Source: Escherichia coli 042
GTDB lineage: Bacteria; Pseudomonadota; Gammaproteobacteria; Enterobacterales; Enterobacteriaceae
DNA: 64,000 nt
Direction: 5' to 3' (one strand)
Assembly (NCBI RefSeq): GCF_000027125.1
Contig: NC_017626.1
The notes beneath the pieces are model-generated. The model was not told the origin of the DNA. It ran no database searches and saw only the letters and a program-made list of their open reading frames with translations. Position numbers and translations under genes: made by a program. This document shows positions 4,205 to 56,874 of the stretch, one piece after another (positions within the stretch are counted from its first letter, which is position 1; the number at the start of each line of letters is the position of its first letter).

Positions 4205-4315
4205 TGCTCTATAAACTCCGTACATCACTCAATGCAAGGAACCAGGCTACCGGCTGGATGTACGACCGTGTTTACGGAGCGCGATACGCCCCGGCCTGAT
4301 TCTGAATTCTTTTTA

Positions 4316-29958: not shown

Positions 29959-31293
29959 TCATTCCTTGAAATCGTTTGCATCCAGCTCGTGTCGGGATAG
30001 CAGTTTATAAAATTCTGTCCGGTTGCGCCCCGCCATTCTCGCCGCGTGGGTGACGTTGCCTTTGGTAATTTGCAGCAGCTTACGCAAGTAGTTGAGTTCA
30101 AACTGATTACGCGCCTCAACAAAGGTTGGCAGCGCCGTGTTTTCGCCCTCCAGCGCCTGCTCCACCAGCGCATCACTAATCACCGGAGATGAGGTCAGCG
30201 CCACGCACTGTTCAATCACGTTGACCAACTGGCGCACATTACCCGGCCAGCTCGCGGTCATCAGGCGTTTCATCGCATCGGTGGAGAACGCGCGGACAAA
30301 CGGTTTATGTCGCTCTGCCGCCTGGCGCAACAGGTGATTTGCCAGTAGCGGAATGTCTTCTGTGCGCTCCGCCAGTGCCGGAATTTTCAGGCTGACAACG
30401 TTGAGGCGGTAATAGAGGTCTTCACGGAATTCCCCGCGCGCCATCGCTTTTGGCAGGTCGCGGTGAGTGGCAGAAATAATCCGCACGTCGATATCAATAT
30501 CGCGGTTACTGCCCAGCGGGCGCACTTTACGCTCCTGCAACACGCGCAGCAGTTTAACCTGCAACGGTGCGGGCATATCGCCAATCTCATCGAGAAATAG
30601 CGTACCGCCTTCCGCCGCCTGGAATAAACCTTCGCGATTGCTGACAGCGCCAGTAAACGCGCCACGCGCATGACCAAACAGCTCCGACTCCAGCAATTGC
30701 TCGGGCAATGCACCACAGTTAATAGCAATAAATGGTTTGCTGTTGCGCGGGCTGGCGTTGTGGATAGCCTGGGCGAAAATCTCTTTCCCGGTGCCGCTCT
30801 GGCCGTTAATCAAAACGCTAACGTCTGATTGCGCCACCAGCCGCGCCTGTTCCAGCAAACGCAGCATCAGCGGGCTGCGGGTGACAATCGCCTCGCGCCA
30901 GCGTTCGTCGGTGGCTGGCGCGGATTGTTCCAGCGCATCATCAATTGCCTGATATAGCGCGTCTTTATCGACAGGCTTGGTGAGGAAACTGAACACGCCC
31001 TGCTGAGTTGCAGCAACGGCATCGGGAATAGAACCATGCGCGGTAAGAATAATTACCGGCATTCCCGGCTGCACTTTCTGAATTTCAGCAAACAGCTGCA
31101 TACCATCCATTTCATCCATCCGCAGGTCGCTGATGACTAAATCTACTTTTTCGCGATTCAGTACCCGTAATCCTTCAGCACCACTTTCCGCCGTGACCAC
31201 GCTGTAGCCTTCGCTGGTCAGGCGCAGGCCAAGCAGTTTCAGCAATCCCGGATCATCATCGACCAATAATAAATGCGCAGGTTTATGGCTCAT
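29959..31293 (-). CDS. glrR: Sigma-54-dependent response regulator GlrR (QseF)
   Basis: ORF 29959..31395; likely start [16 protein letters not shown] (444 aa); receiver domain, AAA+ sigma-54 activator domain with GAFTGA, and C-terminal HTH. Confidence 0.9.
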
Positions 31294-31996
31294 CAGGAGT
31301 GACCTCATCGGTGGATGGCGCGGGCTTTTCACCCTCGTGCGGCGTATCCGGCGAGAAATTTCCAGCCGGTTTGCGGGTCGAGAGCTGGCGTTCAATATCG
31401 GTCAGGTTTTCCAGCTTGCGGGTAGTGAGTTCCAGTTGCTGTTGTAGAACGTGATGTTGCTGGCGCAAAGTATCCAGCTCGCTGTCGCTGGACTGCTGGA
31501 GTTTGCTGTAGCGTTGGCGCTCTTCCGCCAGTTGCAGTTGCAGCGCCTGACCGTCGCGCCAAAGTTGATACAGTGGGCGAACCTGTGCCGGGATTTCGGT
31601 ACTTAGCGCATCAATGCGCGCGACCAGCTGGCGGCGCTCATACGGCGTAATTTTGGCGTCGGCGAGCAAAATCCCTTGTTTAAAGGTATTTTGCCAGCTG
31701 CCGTCGTTATATTGGCGAGCTTGCTGACGCGACTGCGCAGGCATTAAACGATCAGCACAATCCATCGCCCGCAGCCAGTAAAGCGGATTGGTTTCGGTTG
31801 ATTTACCTTGCAGCGCCCAGATGTCGCTACATTCAGTAGAAAGATAGTCAGCCAGTTGATAAACCGGAATTTTTTCTTCTGCTGGCGTATTAATGGCTGG
31901 CTTATTGTGACTCTGCACGCAACCCAGCAATGCCAGACATGGCAGCCCTGCCAGCCACAGCCGTCGGGGCAATAATCGTTGAAAAATGTGTCGCAT
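31283..31996 (-). CDS. qseG: Outer-membrane lipoprotein QseG
   Basis: ORF 31283..32002; lipobox LLGCVQ near the N-terminus; start uncertain between MNMRHIF and MRHIF. The 3' end overlaps the glrR start by about 11 bp. Confidence 0.8.
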   Translation of the reverse strand: MRHIFQRLLPRRLWLAGLPCLALLGCVQSHNKPAINTPAEEKIPVYQLADYLSTECSDIWALQGKSTETNPLYWLRAMDCADRLMPAQSRQQARQYNDGSWQNTFKQGILLADAKITPYERRQLVARIDALSTEIPAQVRPLYQLWRDGQALQLQLAEERQRYSKLQQSSDSELDTLRQQHHVLQQQLELTTRKLENLTDIERQLSTRKPAGNFSPDTPHEGEKPAPSTDEVTPDEP

Positions 31997-32160: not shown

Positions 32161-33588
32161 TTATTTCGTGTTTTTCGACGACGGCAATTCAATGCGGAAG
32201 CAAACGTCTTGCCCGCTCTCGTCGACCAGATACAGTTCCCCTTGCATACGGCGAATACAATCCCTGGCAATGCTTAATCCCAGACCGCTGCCCTTCACCG
32301 CCCCTTTTCGCTGGTGGCTTCCCTGAAAAAAGGGTTCAAAGATCATGGCGCGTTCCTCTTGCGGAATGGGTGTGCCTGTATTGATGACATCAATATAAAC
32401 CCGCGCGCCATGTAAACTGCTGCGAAGGCAAATGTTACCGGATTCAGTCCCGTAGTGCACAGCATTGGAGTAAAGATTATCCAGTACGCTCATCAGCAGC
32501 ATTGGCTCCGCCAGGCAAGCTGTTGCTTGGAGATCGACGTCGGTATGCATCATTTTAGCCCGTGCGGGCAGGCTATGAGCAGAAACTACTGTCTCCACCA
32601 GCGGTGCTAATTCAACATTCTCCAGTTCCACCGCACTGTCCGCCTGTTTACGGTTGTAATCAAGCAGTTGTTCGATCAGTTTTTGCAAATTGCGGCTGCT
32701 GCTATCGAGGATGCTCACCACCTCTTTTTGCTCTGGCGTAAGCGGCCCGACAACCTGGTCAGCCAGTAATTCAGTGCCCTCGCGCATACTTGCCAGCGGC
32801 GTTTTTAATTCATGAGATAAATGTCTTAAGAATTGATGACGTTGGGATTCCAGCCATGACAGGCGCTCACTTAACCAAAGAATACGTTGCCCAACCGAGC
32901 GTAACTCGCTCGGTCCACTGAACGAGACACTATTGCCCAGAGAACGCCCTTCCCCCAGCCGGTTGATCATGCGCTCGATATTTTTCACCGGACCGATAAT
33001 CATCCTCGTGAAAAGTAGCACCATCACCAGACTCACCAGAAATAACACCAGCGATTGCCAACCAAAATATTGCCCACGTTCGGCGATTTCACGCTGAAGT
33101 TGCTGCCCACGAGAGAACACCACTGTGCGCGTGGCCTGCACCATTTCGGTATTGGCACTGGCAAAGGCTTCAAGACGCGCGGCGGCGGCGGCATCGGGAC
33201 CACTGTTGTTACACTGAAGTTGGGCCAGATTGTTCAAGTCCTGACGCAATGCCTGGTAAAGTTTATCGTCTGGCAGTACGCCTGCGTGGGCATCGAGCAT
33301 TTCGCTGTAACGCTTGCGCTGGCTTTGATAAACCTTCGCAAGCGTAGGGTCGTCCAGCACGCAATACTGACGGTAGCTACGCTCCATCTCCAGTGCCGCG
33401 TTGGTCATCGCTTCACTACGCCGGGCATCAATAAGCGTAGTGCGGTTAACCAGCGCCGCCTGATCGCTAAGTGCATTCAGGCTTTGCCAGGCTTGCCATG
33501 CCAGCACCAACAGGGGTAGCAGAATCAGCAAAAATGCCAGCATTACCAGTTGTCGTAATGAGCGGGGAAAAACGGGCCAGCGTTTCAA
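32161..33588 (-). CDS. glrK: Sensor histidine kinase GlrK (QseE)
   Basis: ORF-track entry 32161..33651; the recalled protein begins MKRWPVFPRSLRQ, which here corresponds to a TTG initiation codon at 33588-33586. HisKA H-box (LRHLSHELKTPLASM) and ATPase domain present. Confidence 0.8.
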   Translation of the reverse strand: MKRWPVFPRSLRQLVMLAFLLILLPLLVLAWQAWQSLNALSDQAALVNRTTLIDARRSEAMTNAALEMERSYRQYCVLDDPTLAKVYQSQRKRYSEMLDAHAGVLPDDKLYQALRQDLNNLAQLQCNNSGPDAAAAARLEAFASANTEMVQATRTVVFSRGQQLQREIAERGQYFGWQSLVLFLVSLVMVLLFTRMIIGPVKNIERMINRLGEGRSLGNSVSFSGPSELRSVGQRILWLSERLSWLESQRHQFLRHLSHELKTPLASMREGTELLADQVVGPLTPEQKEVVSILDSSSRNLQKLIEQLLDYNRKQADSAVELENVELAPLVETVVSAHSLPARAKMMHTDVDLQATACLAEPMLLMSVLDNLYSNAVHYGTESGNICLRSSLHGARVYIDVINTGTPIPQEERAMIFEPFFQGSHQRKGAVKGSGLGLSIARDCIRRMQGELYLVDESGQDVCFRIELPSSKNTK

Positions 33589-33646
33589 GGTGTTACTCTC
33601 GTCAGACGCGAATAGCCTGATGCTAACCGAGGGGAAGTTCAGATAC

Positions 33647-33830
33647 AACAAAGCCGGGAATTACCCGGCTTTGTTATGGAATAAGGCGGTGCCTAACTCG
33701 ACGTTTCGCCCGATGGTTGATATAGCTACGCTGATATCAGAAGTTGGACGGCAGGCACCTTGTTGTGCGTCATTCGAATTTTATGTAGCACGTCCCGAAG
33801 GGGCTGACATAAGTCGGTGAATGAGCCACT
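33647..33830 (-). ncRNA. glmY: Small RNA GlmY
   Basis: Reverse strand reads AGTGGCTCATTCACCGACTTATGTCAGCCCCTTCGGGACGTGCTACATAAAATTCGAATGACGCACAACAAGGTGCC... and ends in the terminator AAAGCCGGGTAATTCCCGGCTTTGTTGT, matching recalled GlmY sequence; length 184 nt; no ORF. Confidence 0.85.
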
Positions 33831-33841
33831 GGTTACTATTA

Positions 33842-33857
33842 TGCAGTAACTGTGCCA
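33842..33857 (-). promoter_or_regulatory. Sigma-54 (-24/-12) promoter of glmY
   Basis: Reverse strand TGGCACAGTTACTGCA (GG-N10-GC) ends about 12 nt upstream of the glmY 5' end. Confidence 0.7.
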
Positions 33858-33946
33858 ATAAAGAAAATAGTTTGGTAACGTACTGATTATACGCCGCTTT
33901 GAGGGATTTATGGCTTCTTCGCTATTTGAATGTAAATCAGCCACTG

Positions 33947-34060
33947 TGTCGCTAAAAAGAGACAACTTAAGATAAACTTATTAGATAATATTAAAATCAA
34001 TAAGTTAAATGTCGCCAGAAAGCGACACGGCACACCACCCATTGTCGTGATTTACAGACA
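33947..34060. promoter_or_regulatory. Three TGTC-N10-GACA activator sites (GlrR-type) upstream of glmY
   Basis: TGTCGCTAAAAAGAGACA (33947-33964), TGTCGCCAGAAAGCGACA (34010-34027) and TGTCGTGATTTACAGACA (34043-34060); the known glmY enhancer has three such sites. Confidence 0.7.
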
Positions 34061-34109
34061 CAAAAAAGCTCCCGAAGTTGGGAGCTTATAATAGCGGTTG
34101 GTGCTTAAT

Positions 34110-34139
34110 GCCGGATGCGGCGTGAATGCCTCATCCGGG
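34110..34139. repeat. REP palindromic unit downstream of purL
   Basis: GCCGGATGCGGCGTGAATGCCTCATCCGGG. Confidence 0.75.
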
Positions 34140-34163
34140 CTGCAAAACCAATGGGCTGACGAC

Positions 34164-37100
34164 TTACCCCAACTGCTTACGCGCATTGCGGAAAATGCGC
34201 ATCCATGGGCCATCCTCGCCCCAGTTTTCCGGATGCCAGGAGTTGCTGACAGTACGGAAAACACGTTCCGGGTGCGGCATCATAATGGTGACTCGACCAC
34301 TTTCAGTCGTGACTGCCGTAATACCATTCGGAGAACCGTTCGGGTTAGCCGGGTAGGTTTCAGTGACTTTGCCGAAGTTATCGACATAGCGCAGTGCCAC
34401 CAGCCCTTTGCTTTCCAGTGCCGCCAGATGCGCCGCATCACGCACTTCCACGCGCCCTTCACCATGAGATACAGCAATCGGCATTTGCGAGCCCACCATC
34501 CCCTGCAACAGCAGAGACGGGCTTTGGGTTACTTCAACCAGGCTGAAACGCGCTTCAAAGCGATCGGAGGTATTGCGCACAAAACGTGGCCACAACTCAC
34601 TACCTGGGATCAGTTCGCGCAGATTAGACATCATCTGGCAACCGTTACATACCCCCAGCGCCAGCGTTTGCGGACGGTGGAAGAAGGTTGCAAACTCATC
34701 GCGTACACGGTCATTGAACAGGATAGACTTCGCCCAACCTTCACCGGCACCCAGCACATCACCGTAGGAGAAACCACCGCACGCGACCAGGGCGTGGAAA
34801 TCCTCCAGGCCCGTGCGTCCAGCCAGCAGGTCACTCATATGCACATCGATTGCATCGAAGCCTGCACGGTGGAAAGCAGCCGCCATTTCAACATGCGAGT
34901 TCACGCCCTGCTCACGCAGTACGGCAACTTTCGGACGTGCGCCAGTAGCAATATACGGTGCTGCCACATCTTCGTTGATATCGAACGACAGTTTCACATT
35001 CAGGCCCGGATCGGCGTCGTTGGATTTCGCCTGATGTTCCTGATCGGCACATTCAGGGTTGTCACGCAGGCGCTGCATCTGCCAGGTAGTTTCTGCCCAC
35101 CAGACACGCAACGTGGTGCGGCTTTCGCTGAATACAGTCTGCCCGTTGGCGGTAATCACAAAACGGTCACCGGAAACCGCCTGGCCAACATAATGGACGC
35201 AATCAGCAAGGCCATGCAGTGCCAGTACCGCTTCAACTGCTTTACGGTCAGCGGCTCGAACCTGAATCACCGCACCCAGTTCTTCGTTAAACAACGCCGC
35301 CAGGCGATCGTCACCCAGAGTGGCGATATCCGCGTCAATGCCGCAATGACCAGCAAAGGCCATTTCCGCCAGCGTTACCAGCAGGCCGCCATCAGAGCGG
35401 TCGTGGTACGCGAGCAGCTTACGCTGTGCTACCAGCGCCTGAACCGCGTCATAGAAACCTTTCAGTTGCGCGACGTCGCGTACATCTGCCGGTTTGTCGC
35501 CAAGCTGACGATAAACCTGCGCCAGCGCCGTTGCGCCCAGCGCGTTATTGCCTTTGCCCAGATCAATCAGCAGTAATGCGTTATCTTCGGTAGAAAGCTG
35601 CGGCGTGATGGTGTGACGCACATCTTCCACACGGGCAAATGCAGAAATCACCAGCGACAGCGGCGACGTCATTTCGCGCTCTTCGTTACCTTCCTGCCAG
35701 CGGGTTTTCATCGACATAGAGTCTTTACCCACCGGGATCGTCAGGCCCAGCGCCGGACAAAGTTCTTCGCCCACAGCTTTAACGGCTTCATACAGGCCCG
35801 CATCTTCACCAGGGTGGCCTGCCGCCGCCATCCAGTTGGCGGAAAGTTTAATGCGTTTGATATCGCCAATCTGTGTTGCGGCAATATTGGTTAACGCTTC
35901 ACCGACCGCCAGACGGGCAGAGGCGGCGAAATCCAGCAGCGCAACCGGCGCACGCTCGCCAATCGCCATCGCTTCACCATAGTAGCTGTCAAGGCTGGCG
36001 GTAGTGACCGCGCAGTTAGCGACCGGCACCTGCCACGGACCCACCATCTGATCGCGCGCTACCATGCCGGTTACGCTGCGGTCACCAATGGTCACCAGGA
36101 AAGTTTTCTCCGCCACGGTCGGCAGGTGCAGCACGCGTTTCACCGCGTCAGCAATGGTAATCCCTTCACGAACCAGCGCATCACCCTTCGCTTTCAGCGT
36201 TTGTACTTCGCGGGTCATCTTCGGCGTTTTACCAAGCAGTACGTCCAGCGGCAGATCGATCGGCTGATTATCAAAATGACGATCGTGCAAAGAAAGATGC
36301 AGTTCTTCGGTCGCTTCACCAATCACCGCGTATGGCGCGCGCTCACGCTTACACAGTTCGTCAAACAGCGGTAACTGATCGGCAGCAACCGCCAGCACGT
36401 AGCGTTCCTGGGATTCGTTACACCAGATTTCCAGCGGGCTCATGCCCGGTTCGTCGCTCAGGATATCGCGCAGTTCGAATTTACCGCCGCGCCCGCCGTC
36501 GCTCACCAGTTCCGGCATGGCGTTAGAAAGACCGCCTGCGCCAACGTCGTGGATAAACAGGATTGGGTTGGCATCACCAAGCTGCCAGCAACGGTCGATC
36601 ACTTCCTGGCAGCGACGCTCCATCTCCGGGTTGTCGCGCTGTACGGAAGCGAAGTCGAGGTCGGCATCAGACTGACCAGACGCCATGGAAGACGCCGCGC
36701 CGCCGCCAAGACCGATGTTCATTGCCGGGCCGCCGAGAACGACCAGCTTCGCACCAACGTTGATCTCGCCTTTTTGTACGTGATCGGCACGAATATTGCC
36801 GATCCCGCCCGCCAGCATGATCGGTTTGTGATAACCGCGCAGCTCTTCGCCATTGTGGCTGTTCACTTTTTCTTCATAAGTACGGAAGTAGCCGTTCAGT
36901 GCCGGACGACCAAATTCGTTGTTAAATGCCGCGCCGCCCAGCGGGCCTTCGGTCATGATGTCCAGCGCGGTGACAATGCGCTCAGGCTTACCGAAATCTT
37001 CTTCCCACGGCTGTTCGAAGCCTGGAATTCGCAGGTTGGAAACGGAGAAACCTACCAGACCAGCTTTCGGCTTTGCGCCACGCCCGGTGGCACCTTCATC

Positions 37101-42948: not shown

Positions 42949-43065
42949 TTCGTAAAGGCTCGAGTTTTTATGCTAAAGATTACAAGTTGCTTGTAAAAGA
43001 TAACCGCCCTGATCCATAATCGCTCTTGTTGAGGGTGCGTGCTGCACAAAATTAAAGTTAAAAAG

Positions 43066-43105
43066 TAAAACCCCCGTTCCTTACCAGTTCGGGGGTTTTA
43101 CTTTA
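43066..43105. terminator. Bidirectional rho-independent terminator downstream of acpS
   Basis: AAAACCCCCGTTCCTTACCAGTTCGGGGGTTTT, a GC-rich stem flanked by A-tract and T-tract on both sides, lies 20 bp past the acpS stop. Confidence 0.7.
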
Positions 43106-44987: not shown

Positions 44988-46600
<1,613 letters not shown>

Positions 46601-46842
46601 TCAGCACACGAAACAGACCTGATATACATGGCTCTGCTAACTGCTTCGCTGCAGTTTCAGTTTACCGGTATATGGGGACCAACGCTGTTTCGTGTGCCGT
46701 GGCAACCTGGAGGTGCCAACCTTAAACTTCGGGGGAATATTCTATACACAACGACGGGGGATGTCGTTAGCCACGGGAGATTTATCTCATAAATAATTCA
46801 CGTTGTCGCCATAACGGCGACAACGTGAACGAAGATGGGCTA

Positions 46843-47832: not shown

Positions 47833-49632
<1,800 letters not shown>

Positions 49633-49829
49633 AAAGTATGATTATTGTGCCTTAATGCCCGGTTAACCAGGCTTTTAGAAGTCGCTGTTCTGAGCTTAAC
49701 GTCTGTATTAATAGAAACGCCGCATTCTACACTACAACATTGAGGCGAGGAAATGTTCATACCGTATGGATTGTGGTATCTGGAAACGTCCTCGCATTTG
49801 TTATGCAAAATGCAACAAAGCCAGTGAAA

Positions 49830-50309
49830 TCACTGGCTCGCGTCTTCCGAAGATGTTTCAAATCGCACAAGGCCAGGCGGCAATGCCACGCTTAAGATGA
49901 TCGGTTGCCATTCAGACCGGGCAGCAAACTTTCGAGAGCCGCCACGTGCAATCAGGAATCCACCAACGCCACCGAGAATCGCACCGCATAATGCTGCAAT
50001 ATCTGAAGCAAAGAGTAGCTGAAATAGTGAAGCGATGAGGAATAGTCCCACCAACGGCGACATATAAACCAGTAATGCGGAGCTAAGCAGGCTGCCTTCG
50101 GCGATCCCCAATTCCACTTTTTGCCCCGGCACTAACGGTTCATCACAGGGTACGACAATGGTATGCGTGGTTTGCGGGCCAAGTTTATTCAACACGCGGC
50201 TACCGCAACCGGCGCGTGAAGCGCAGCTGCTGCATGAGGCTTTAACATCACAACTAACCAGCGCCTGCCCGTTTTCCCAGGAGATGACGGTAGCCCACTC
50301 TTTGATCAT
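49830..50309 (-). CDS. rseC: Sigma-E regulatory protein RseC
   Basis: 159 aa; operon position after rseB; hydrophobic C-terminal half. Confidence 0.9.
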   Translation of the reverse strand: MIKEWATVISWENGQALVSCDVKASCSSCASRAGCGSRVLNKLGPQTTHTIVVPCDEPLVPGQKVELGIAEGSLLSSALLVYMSPLVGLFLIASLFQLLFASDIAALCGAILGGVGGFLIARGGSRKFAARSEWQPIILSVALPPGLVRFETSSEDASQ

Positions 50310-51262
50310 TGCGCTGCCCCGAACTTAATATTCTCGGCAATGCGTTTCGCCGTTTGCGGCGGCAGTTCACCGACAATGGTGATTTCGGCGTTATCACGTA
50401 CGCTTGTACTGACGGTTCTGCGTCCGGTGCGCAACATCTGATCGGTGCTCGATGGCGTAGCGCGGTTAACGTTTACCGAAAAGCTGAATAATCCGTCGGA
50501 ATAGAGACGTGATTCGATAGGCATGTTGTCCATCGTCGGTAGCGGACGTCGACTACTGGAAACTTCGCTAAAACCCTGTGGCAACCAGGTTGGCGTCCAG
50601 CTGAATTTAGCTTTTTCACCTACAGGAACAGAAAGCAACGGCGGCAAATTTGCCTTCGCCAACGTCTGCATACTGCTGCTGATATCCTGATTGACATTAA
50701 AAGCAATCACGCGAAATTGTTCCAGCGTTTCACCATCGCGATCAAGGAGATCAACCCGCATCGGTAATTTCGATTCGGTGTCCATCCACACGATGTAGCT
50801 GTAGCGTGTACCATCTCGGGCAACCACACGAATGACTTCGCAAAGACGATCAGCAATACGCGTGCGCCCGACGGAGATAAAGTCGTAGTAAGGAGAAAGG
50901 CGTTTGAAATCGGTATAGATGAGCGATGGTAGAGAATCAACAATGTAATCGCCATTAAGCGTGAACGGTTCAAGTCCCGGTTCAAAATAGCTGATTTCAT
51001 TGCCGCGCTGTACCACTTCCCGGCGCGGGCCATCCATTTGCAACAATTGTGCAAGAGGACGGTTATCGAGGCGTGCATGTCGATAACGCAGAGACTCAAC
51101 ACCCTGTTTATTGATGCTGATGAATGACAGCTCGTAATTCAGTGACTGACTGGCCAGGTTCATCTGCTGTAATAACGCCCCGGACGCGGGAGTGGCCGAG
51201 GCGTTAGCAGAGAATAACAGGCTACCTGTCACTAATGACATGGCAAACCAAAGTTGCTTCAT
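50306..51262 (-). CDS. rseB: Sigma-E regulatory protein RseB (periplasmic)
   Basis: 318 aa with signal peptide MKQLWFAMSLVTGSLLFSANASA; stop overlaps the rseC start. Confidence 0.93.
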   Translation of the reverse strand: MKQLWFAMSLVTGSLLFSANASATPASGALLQQMNLASQSLNYELSFISINKQGVESLRYRHARLDNRPLAQLLQMDGPRREVVQRGNEISYFEPGLEPFTLNGDYIVDSLPSLIYTDFKRLSPYYDFISVGRTRIADRLCEVIRVVARDGTRYSYIVWMDTESKLPMRVDLLDRDGETLEQFRVIAFNVNQDISSSMQTLAKANLPPLLSVPVGEKAKFSWTPTWLPQGFSEVSSSRRPLPTMDNMPIESRLYSDGLFSFSVNVNRATPSSTDQMLRTGRRTVSTSVRDNAEITIVGELPPQTAKRIAENIKFGAAQ

Positions 51263-52520: not shown

Positions 52521-52918
52521 CCGAGGTAAAGTCTCCCCAAACCAAATTTCCACGCGCTATCGAAACGCCACTCCATTAGCTGCAATTTGAGCAAGCAAAG
52601 GGTTAGAGTGTCTCGTTTTTGTAAAGTTCCGTAACGCATCTGTTTTTGTTTGTCATGCTGTAGACGGATCATTATCTATCATTATAAGTCTACAGAATCT
52701 GAACATCGCATTATCTGTGTAGAAATGCCCATTTAACTGCCTGAAGAGTAACCCAACGGCCTTTTTATTTCACCACCTAATCCTCCACCAGCCAGTAACT
52801 TCTCTTTTTCTCGCCGCCCTGCGTCAGCGTGTTTAGCCACTGTAACAAATATTAAAATAGTAGGTGTTTAATCGCACAACATGATGCTATGCTGACCAAA
52901 CCGTGTTTAGTAAATTAA

Positions 52919-55272
<2,354 letters not shown>

Positions 55273-56790: not shown

Positions 56791-56874
56791 GCCTGATGCG
56801 CTACGCTTATCAGGCCTACATGGCTCATGCAATATATTGAATTTGCACGATCTTGTAGGCCGGATAAGGCGTTC
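56791..56874. repeat. BIME whose second REP unit is split by the IS insertion
   Basis: GCCTGATGCGCTACGCTTATCAGGCCTACA ... ATATTGAATTTGCA ... TGTAGGCCGGATAAGGCGTTC; the remaining half of the REP (ACGCCGCATCCGGCATGAAC) resumes at 58311 after the IS. Confidence 0.8.

Follow-up and report, generated by a model that had tools for sequence, protein, structure and literature searches.

The glmY small RNA gene of Escherichia coli and its sigma-54 control region: coordinates, conservation, and comparison with the published K-12 promoter

Results

Gene order and boundaries of the locus

We analyzed a 64-kb stretch of E. coli DNA, referred to here as the window, with a focus on the interval that separates purL from the genes encoding the GlrK/GlrR (QseE/QseF) two-component system. 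The gene order purL, glmY, glrK-qseG-glrR is confirmed by the annotations of K-12 and of an identical strain and by the proteins encoded in the window; the features mapped are collected in Table 1. The 571 bases surrounding glmY are 100% identical to those of E. coli strain 118UI, and a search of 5426 complete E. coli genomes found the region in 5425. For the identical strain, RefSeq records no feature between purL and qseE, leaving a gap of 575 bp in which glmY is not annotated.

On the minus strand of positions 33400 to 34400, the upstream end carries the stop codon of a long open reading frame (34164 to 34166) followed by a REP-like palindrome. This REP-like element after purL is intact here, whereas K-12 lacks 18 bp of it. 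The T tract of the purL terminator adjoins ABS1, the outermost of three predicted GlrR/QseF sites, and marks the upstream limit of the glmY module. At the opposite end, glrK/qseE begins with a TTG codon 58 nt past the end of glmY and is annotated as qseE in the identical strain. GlrR shares 443 of 444 residues with the K-12 protein, including the same C terminus, and harbors Response_reg, Sigma54_activat, and AAA_lid_14 domains; together with the close match of GlrK (472/475), this bears out the initial annotation, which had placed the GlrK/GlrR genes directly downstream. QseG, encoded between them, is a lipoprotein required for QseE activity (PMC6075780).

Table 1. Features of the glmY locus, in the order in which they are met along the minus strand. 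Coordinates are those of the 64-kb window, and negative positions are relative to the glmY transcription start.
Feature	Coordinates	Strand	Basis and remarks
purL intrinsic terminator	34061..34087	-	scan match, 8-bp stem then TTTTTT; -13.6 kcal/mol
ABS1 TGTCTGTAAATCACGACA, predicted GlrR/QseF site 1	34043..34060	.	exact palindrome, centre -221.5
ABS2 TGTCGCTTTCTGGCGACA, predicted GlrR/QseF site 2	34010..34027	.	exact palindrome, centre -188.5
Distal predicted IHF site AATCAATAAGTTA	33995..34007	+	exact consensus; -177..-165
ABS3 TGTCTCTTTTTAGCGACA, predicted GlrR/QseF site 3	33947..33964	.	exact palindrome, centre -125.5
Spacer, ABS3 to proximal IHF site	33889..33946	-	variable in sequence and length
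Proximal IHF-like site AATCAGTACGTTA	33876..33888	-	exact match to WATCARNNNNTTR; -58..-46
Sigma-54 promoter TGGCACAGTTACTGCA	33842..33857	-	at -27..-12; single TGGCAC-N5-YTGCW match in 64 kb
Sigma-70 -10 hexamer CATAAT	33838..33843	-	read from the sequence; named as -10 in PMC3045617
glmY primary transcript, 184 nt	33647..33830	-	alignment to K-12 ncRNA b4441
GlmY core, 148 nt	33683..33830	-	RF00128 full-length model match
glmY intrinsic terminator hairpin	33646..33676	-	fold energy -21.8 kcal/mol
glrK/qseE, sensor kinase	32161..33588	-	472/475 identical to K-12 GlrK; HisKA and HATPase_c
qseG	31283..31996	-	NCBIfam NF007997, 359 bits, cut-off 234
glrR/qseF, sigma-54 enhancer-binding response regulator	29959..31293	-	NCBIfam NF011695, 982 bits, cut-off 763

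Identity and structure of the GlmY RNA

A whole-window Rfam scan carried out at the gathering threshold (gathering score 33) returned RF00128 (GlmY_tke1) at 33683 to 33830 on the minus strand with 147.1 bits (E 8e-33), the GlmY model being matched in full over its positions 1 to 163. Alignment of the 184-nt K-12 glmY (b4441) with the window gave 183 of 184 identical nucleotides. These are two of the checks that the initial annotation had suggested, and both uphold its description of a 184-nt reverse-strand sequence matching GlmY and ending in a strong terminator. Older names of the K-12 gene are sroF and tke1. With the K-12 ends mapped by the alignment, the transcript starts (+1) with the A at 33830 and ends at 33647, within a UUUGUU tract. 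Nucleotide 66, located in the internal loop of stem-loop 1, is T here versus A in K-12; other aligned Escherichia lineages also carry T. GlmY is processed from 184 to 148 nt, and it is the 148-nt form that is active and binds RapZ (PMC4152352). The length of the Rfam match, 148 nt, is the published length of processed GlmY (PMC4152352).

The minimum-free-energy fold of GlmY consists of two 5' stem-loops and the terminator hairpin, three in all, with z = -5.9 versus shuffled sequences. The terminator stem pairs GCCGGG (33664 to 33669) with CCCGGC (33653 to 33658) across a UAAUU loop, is extended by A/U pairs, and runs into the U-rich tail UUUGUU. Across 78 distinct enterobacterial sequences, the 27 consensus pairs of the GlmY helices are 99.8% canonical. 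The helices are mostly invariant, with compensatory change at 2 pairs only; the 3' block and 3' helix are partly set by the search pattern (see below), such that invariance and species choice there are partly built in. The covariation agrees with the structure but is weak as independent proof, in part because the pattern fixes the 3' block. A generic terminator scan of the region, the rules of which are strict, found the purL terminator and not that of glmY; we suppose that a simple scan overlooks the latter because its U tract is interrupted.

Sigma-54 promoter and the overlapping sigma-70 promoter reported for K-12

Reichenbach et al. (2009) are reportedly the source for a K-12 glmY with a promoter that depends on GlrR/QseF, IHF, and sigma-54. 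As had been noted initially, a GG-N10-GC sigma-54 element, TGGCACAGTTACTGCA, lies just upstream of the RNA gene, and it is the single match to TGGCAC-N5-YTGCW in the window. An AT-rich stretch separates it from the three palindromes described below. Its GG is found at -26/-25 and its GC at -14/-13 from +1, the correct distance to the start. The element is one mismatch away from a TGGCAC-N5-TTGCA-like sigma-54 consensus with GG-N10-GC and is the same as in K-12, where sigma-54 dependence of the glmY promoter has been demonstrated (PMC3045617).

In the published description of the promoter, a weak sigma-70 promoter overlaps the sigma-54 promoter exactly and uses the same start nucleotide (PMC3045617; PMC6075780). 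A generic sigma-70 scan at the glmY promoter gave no consensus-grade -35/-10 pair, pointing to a poor -35 and fitting the published description of this promoter as weak (PMC3045617; PMC6075780). The failure of the scans to return the glmY terminator and the sigma-70 promoter reflects strict scan rules and is no evidence of absence. The initial annotation had included neither the published overlapping sigma-70 promoter (-10 CATAAT) nor the two exact IHF consensus sites described below.

Three GlrR/QseF sites and two IHF sites

Three evenly spaced TGTC-N10-GACA palindromes had been described upstream of the promoter. Three exact sites are indeed found at -230 to -117, but they are not evenly spaced: the centre-to-centre distances are 33 bp for ABS1-ABS2 and 63 bp for ABS2-ABS3. 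In helical turns these distances are roughly three and six, and the unevenness is kept across species. In K-12, GlrR binds the ABS sites, which have the same sequence as those found here; ABS2 and ABS3 are essential and ABS1 is dispensable (PMC3045617).

A search of the 64 kb with the IHF consensus WATCARNNNNTTR gave six exact matches, of which two fall in the glmY upstream region. The distal match lies inside the enhancer, starting 2 bp past ABS2, and from this position we infer that 33995 to 34007 is the distal IHF site 1 of PMC3045617. The proximal match sits between the enhancer and the sigma-54 promoter; we assign 33876 to 33888 as a candidate for IHF site 2 of that study, an assignment that is our own. 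K-12 glmY has two IHF-like sites, the distal of which is essential for sigma-54 activity; IHF binds the glmY fragment and is needed for the sigma-54 promoter, and expression drops about four- to five-fold on loss of IHF or of IHF site 1 (PMC3045617).

Conservation of the control region among enterobacterial species

Orthologues were collected by scanning one genome per species with a 26-base pattern internal to GlmY, such that the promoter was not presupposed. The 95 loci obtained in this way belong to Escherichia, Citrobacter, Klebsiella, Kluyvera, Enterobacter, Kosakonia, Serratia, Yersinia, Pectobacterium, Dickeya, Brenneria, and others. Upstream counts refer to the 90 of 95 loci for which 400 bp or more of DNA upstream of glmY was available, in a sample limited to species that keep the searched GlmY block.

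Conservation of the palindromes in orthologous regions and their spacing relative to a predicted IHF site had both been proposed as checks on the module, and both speak for it. Three ABS dyads (≤1 mismatch) are present in 81/90 loci, with two dyads in the other 9, and TGGCAY-N5-xTGCA occurs at the place corresponding to the sigma-54 element in 89/90. All 81 three-site loci have ABS1-ABS2 at 32/33 bp and ABS2-ABS3 at 63/64 bp. The half-sites of ABS2 are kept, with the inner 10 bp variable even inside Escherichia. In 82/83 species an IHF match (≤1 mismatch) keeps its offset of 2 bp past ABS2. The proximal IHF match (≤1 mismatch) lies 30-31 bp upstream of TGGCAC in 62/83, regardless of the distance to the enhancer. 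CATAAT is found at the position of the -10 hexamer in 51/90 loci. When the 37 loci with E. coli geometry are considered, conservation falls into footprint-like blocks that match the half-sites of the dyads, both IHF sites, the promoter, and the RNA; the spacers vary freely, and there is no codon periodicity.

The promoter described by Gopel et al. (2011) for K-12 glmY (PMC3045617) is the closest known system. Gene, neighbours, and start of transcription are the same, and the locus studied here is identical to it over ABS1-3, the two IHF-consensus sites, the sigma-54 element, CATAAT, and the terminator. The two sequences differ by about 8 substitutions in the spacer and by 3 at non-contact positions between ABS1 and ABS3. 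Other Enterobacterales, among them Salmonella, Yersinia, and Serratia, likewise carry at their glmY/glmZ promoters (groups I-III, PMC3045617) a tripartite TGTC-N10-GACA enhancer spaced by 32/33 and 63/64 bp, together with an IHF site adjoining ABS2 and a sigma-54 promoter.

A polymorphic spacer from ABS3 to the proximal IHF site

The 8 spacer substitutions relative to K-12 fall in about 33 bp of the ABS3-to-proximal-IHF interval, which is where E. coli polymorphism at the glmY module is concentrated. An 85-bp spacer query is 88 to 100% identical in 5425 E. coli genomes and reaches at least 99% in only 169. Clades also differ in how far ABS3 stands from the promoter, with values of 86 bp (Shimwellia), 97-100 bp (100 bp here), 115-119 bp (Serratia/Yersinia), 127-128 bp (about 127 in Pectobacterium), and 138 bp (Dickeya oryzae). 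A hidden functional element under the substitution cluster was considered and rejected, as this is the one interval whose sequence and length both differ from species to species. On this sequence comparison, 33889 to 33946 is best read as a probable unconstrained linker.

NtrC-type sigma-54 promoters such as glnAp2 resemble glmY in having the GG-N10-GC element and in relying on DNA looping and on a response regulator that binds an enhancer >100 bp upstream. What sets glmY apart from them is the set of three dyads, the placement of an IHF site within the enhancer, and the reported sigma-70 promoter, which coincides with the sigma-54 element and shares its start.

Alternative readings of the locus

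We considered whether the sigma-54/GlrR module might be vestigial in this strain, leaving the overlapping sigma-70 promoter as effectively the sole driver of glmY. The CATAAT hexamer is intact, E. coli glmZ is reported to have exchanged sigma-54 control for sigma-70 (PMC3045617), and the spacer haplotype found here belongs to a minority of E. coli genomes, the 169 of 5425 noted above. Set against these points, all functional elements match base for base those of K-12, where the sigma-54 promoter gives most of the expression (PMC3045617), the GlrK, QseG, and GlrR proteins are all intact, with 99% identity to their K-12 counterparts, and the substitutions avoid every mapped site. We consider loss of the module very improbable.

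The palindromes could instead have arisen by chance, or could serve purL 3'-end formation or another regulator rather than GlrR. ABS1 directly adjoins the purL terminator, and TGTC-N10-GACA with one mismatch is not enriched in the window (18 occurrences versus 20.8 expected); these counts make the relaxed motif uninformative. One such one-mismatch occurrence, at 53094 to 53111, lies inside nadB and was taken as chance. The exact motif behaves differently, with 3 matches in the 64-kb window versus 0.72 expected, all three inside 114 bp (-230 to -117) and none elsewhere; by our own arithmetic from the window counts, the probability of such a cluster by chance is ~1e-7. Chance is further disfavored by the retention of half-sites and spacing in 81/90 loci while the inner 10 bp and flanks drift. 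As for a role unrelated to GlrR, the gene for the cognate enhancer-binding protein lies in cis, and GlrR binding and the effects of site mutations have been published for identical K-12 sites (PMC3045617). Either version of this reading is therefore extremely unlikely.

A coding function was also evaluated. The initial statement that no open reading frame covers the region does not hold literally, since three mechanical frames overlap it: 44 aa at 33908 to 34042 (-), 79 aa at 33726 to 33965 (-), and 76 aa at 33590 to 33820 (+), the last antisense to glmY. In the species with the same geometry, a start codon and open frame are retained in 0/36 for the 44-aa frame and in 7/36 for the 79-aa frame, and on this poor conservation the two minus-strand frames were rejected as small proteins. 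The conservation blocks match DNA-binding sites and lack codon periodicity, and the K-12 annotation in this interval consists of glmY only, which makes a small protein encoded here scarcely credible.

Finally, GlmY and GlmZ form one Rfam clan (CL00011) with a common structure (PMC4152352), but the idea that the RNA is GlmZ, or an undifferentiated member of that clan, has next to no probability and was rejected on the b4441 alignment (183/184 to K-12 glmY) and on clan competition, in which cmscan keeps the best member at overlaps, here GlmY at 147 bits; moreover, the purL-glmY-glrK order is the glmY context, and E. coli glmZ has a sigma-70 promoter only, without GlrR or IHF sites (PMC3045617). 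GlmY differs from GlmZ in lacking complementarity to the glmS leader; glmS itself lies outside the window, and the assignment to GlmY draws on clan competition and on the identity to K-12 glmY.

Discussion

We regard it as very nearly certain that this locus is E. coli glmY with its complete published control region. The initial annotation had called this a well-described system, and published K-12 work supports that description (PMC3045617; PMC6075780; PMC4152352). The glmY system found here is already known, and the sequence contains nothing that contradicts it. Protein binding, sigma-factor dependence, processing, and RapZ sequestration as established in K-12 can be carried over, by analogy, to the identical elements mapped here.

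On that basis, the following course of events would be expected, drawing on PMC3045617 for GlrR, IHF, and sigma-54, on PMC4152352 for RNA processing and RapZ, and on PMC6075780 for QseG. QseG would activate GlrK/QseE, leading to phosphorylation of GlrR/QseF at Asp56, and GlrR-P would occupy the TGTC-N10-GACA sites centred at -221.5, -188.5, and -125.5. Activation of glmY by GlrR-P would require IHF, which we think may act by bending DNA when bound at -177 to -165 and at -58 to -46; action at these two mapped sites is consistent with the published essential distal site (PMC3045617). GlrR-P would then remodel sigma-54 RNA polymerase on TGGCAC-N5-CTGCA (-27 to -12), opening the closed complex for a start at A33830, while sigma-70 polymerase, by way of CATAAT, would provide basal glmY transcription from the same nucleotide. 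The 184-nt GlmY would end at the intrinsic terminator and be trimmed to 148 nt, and the 148-nt form would mimic GlmZ and titrate the RNase E adaptor RapZ. GlmZ would thus be spared from RNase E, and glmS translation would rise when glucosamine-6-phosphate is scarce, restoring the balance.

The arrangement of the sites also invites a tentative structural reading, which we consider possible but on the whole rather unlikely. The enhancer may be a two-bend device in which a first IHF bend folds ABS1 and ABS2 onto ABS3, allowing one GlrR hexamer to assemble from three dimers, and a second bend delivers this hexamer to the promoter, with the polymorphic spacer serving as a phase-insensitive linker. 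We entertain this arrangement because the enhancer contains the distal IHF site, next to ABS2 (82/83), with ABS2-ABS3 fixed at 63/64 bp, and because the distance from the proximal IHF site to the promoter is fixed, with the ABS3-to-IHF interval free in sequence and length. If the two-bend arrangement holds, different spacer alleles could adjust glmY output from one E. coli lineage to another.

GlmY, GlmZ, RapZ, and QseE/QseF control the synthesis of cell-envelope precursors and, in pathogenic E. coli, virulence genes as well. An automatic reader of this genome would see a blank gap of 575 bp where some ten elements make up a dense regulatory unit. The practical value of the present work is one of annotation only, with exact coordinates that can be transferred to the genome. 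The cross-species comparison provides independent confirmation of the published promoter model as regards the spacing of the three dyads, the offsets of the IHF sites, and the variability of the linker.

Within-species variation around glmY

Window positions 33889–33946, the spacer that separates GlrR site 3 from the proximal IHF site, form a hot spot of sequence variation within E. coli. Relative to K-12 this spacer carries eight substitutions in ~33 bp, and identity ranges from 88 to 100% among 5425 E. coli genomes; the haplotype found in the window is a minority one, shared at ≥99% identity by 169 of these. GlmY itself differs between the window and K-12 only at nucleotide 66 (window 33765), which lies in an internal loop of stem-loop 1 and is T in the window and A in K-12. 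Because T is also found in the remaining aligned Escherichia lineages, this comparison makes K-12 look like the variant form at this position.

We also find that in the RefSeq annotation of strain 118UI (NZ_CP032515.1, 6008–6582), whose sequence is identical to that of the window, purL and qseE have no glmY entry between them. In K-12, b4441 is annotated at this place; the sRNA appears to have been omitted by automatic annotation of NZ_CP032515.1.

A palindrome following purL, which resembles the REP consensus, is incomplete in K-12, where alignment to the window reveals that 18 bp are missing (window 34114–34131). The alignment to some other E. coli genomes is split into two pieces with 98% coverage, which we assume to reflect the same 18-bp gap.

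Other Rfam matches and candidate regulatory elements in the window

Additional Rfam matches were counted only above the gathering score and are collected in the table with the palindrome and with elements upstream of rpoE, the P2 promoter of which is reported to be the second QseF/sigma-54 target (PMC6075780). The intergenic region upstream of rpoE (window 52555–52921) contains no exact TGTC-N10-GACA site; the relaxed sites listed both begin TGTTTAG.

Additional features of the window, in whole-stretch coordinates
Feature	Coordinates	Strand	Sequence	Location or basis
iscRS stability element	4206–4315			Rfam match above gathering score
REP-like palindromic unit	34110–34140	+	GCCGGATGCGGCGTGAATGCCTCATCCGGGC	between purL stop codon and purL terminator
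OhsC antitoxin sRNA	43028–43104			Rfam match above gathering score
rncO leader	46516–46730			Rfam match above gathering score
AsrC, antisense to rseC	49514–50345			Rfam match above gathering score
GG-N10-GC element (single)	52555–52570	−	TGGCGTTTCGATAGCG	rpoE upstream region
8-bp inverted repeat	near 52660–52697		CTGTAGAC...GTCTACAG	rpoE upstream region
Relaxed TGT-N12-ACA site	52830–52847			rpoE upstream region
Relaxed TGT-N12-ACA site	52904–52921			rpoE upstream region
ES036/CssrF	56812–56854			Rfam match above gathering score

Promoter architecture among relatives

The locus of Candidatus Symbiopectobacterium sp. 'North America' (L046) is the sole one of 90 lacking a recognizable sigma-54 element upstream of glmY; it keeps three dyad sites, two exact and one with a single mismatch, and the missing element may represent promoter decay in a symbiont genome. 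A locus labeled Chryseobacterium sp. 18061 (CACSKA010000009.1) harbors a glmY typical of enterobacteria, preceded by a promoter resembling that of Enterobacter, and this assembly is probably mislabeled or contaminated. Two scaffolds of one Brenneria sp. hezel4-2-4 assembly (L049 and L050) are identical upstream of glmY in sigma-54 elements, GlrR sites, and spacing, and are either a true duplication or an assembly artifact.

Across the orthologous loci L003–L097, the enhancer-to-promoter distance, measured from GlrR site 3, falls into clade-specific classes of 86, 97 to 100, 115 to 119, 127 to 128, and 138 bp, which differ by nonintegral helical turns. While this distance varies, the proximal IHF-like site holds a constant position relative to the promoter.
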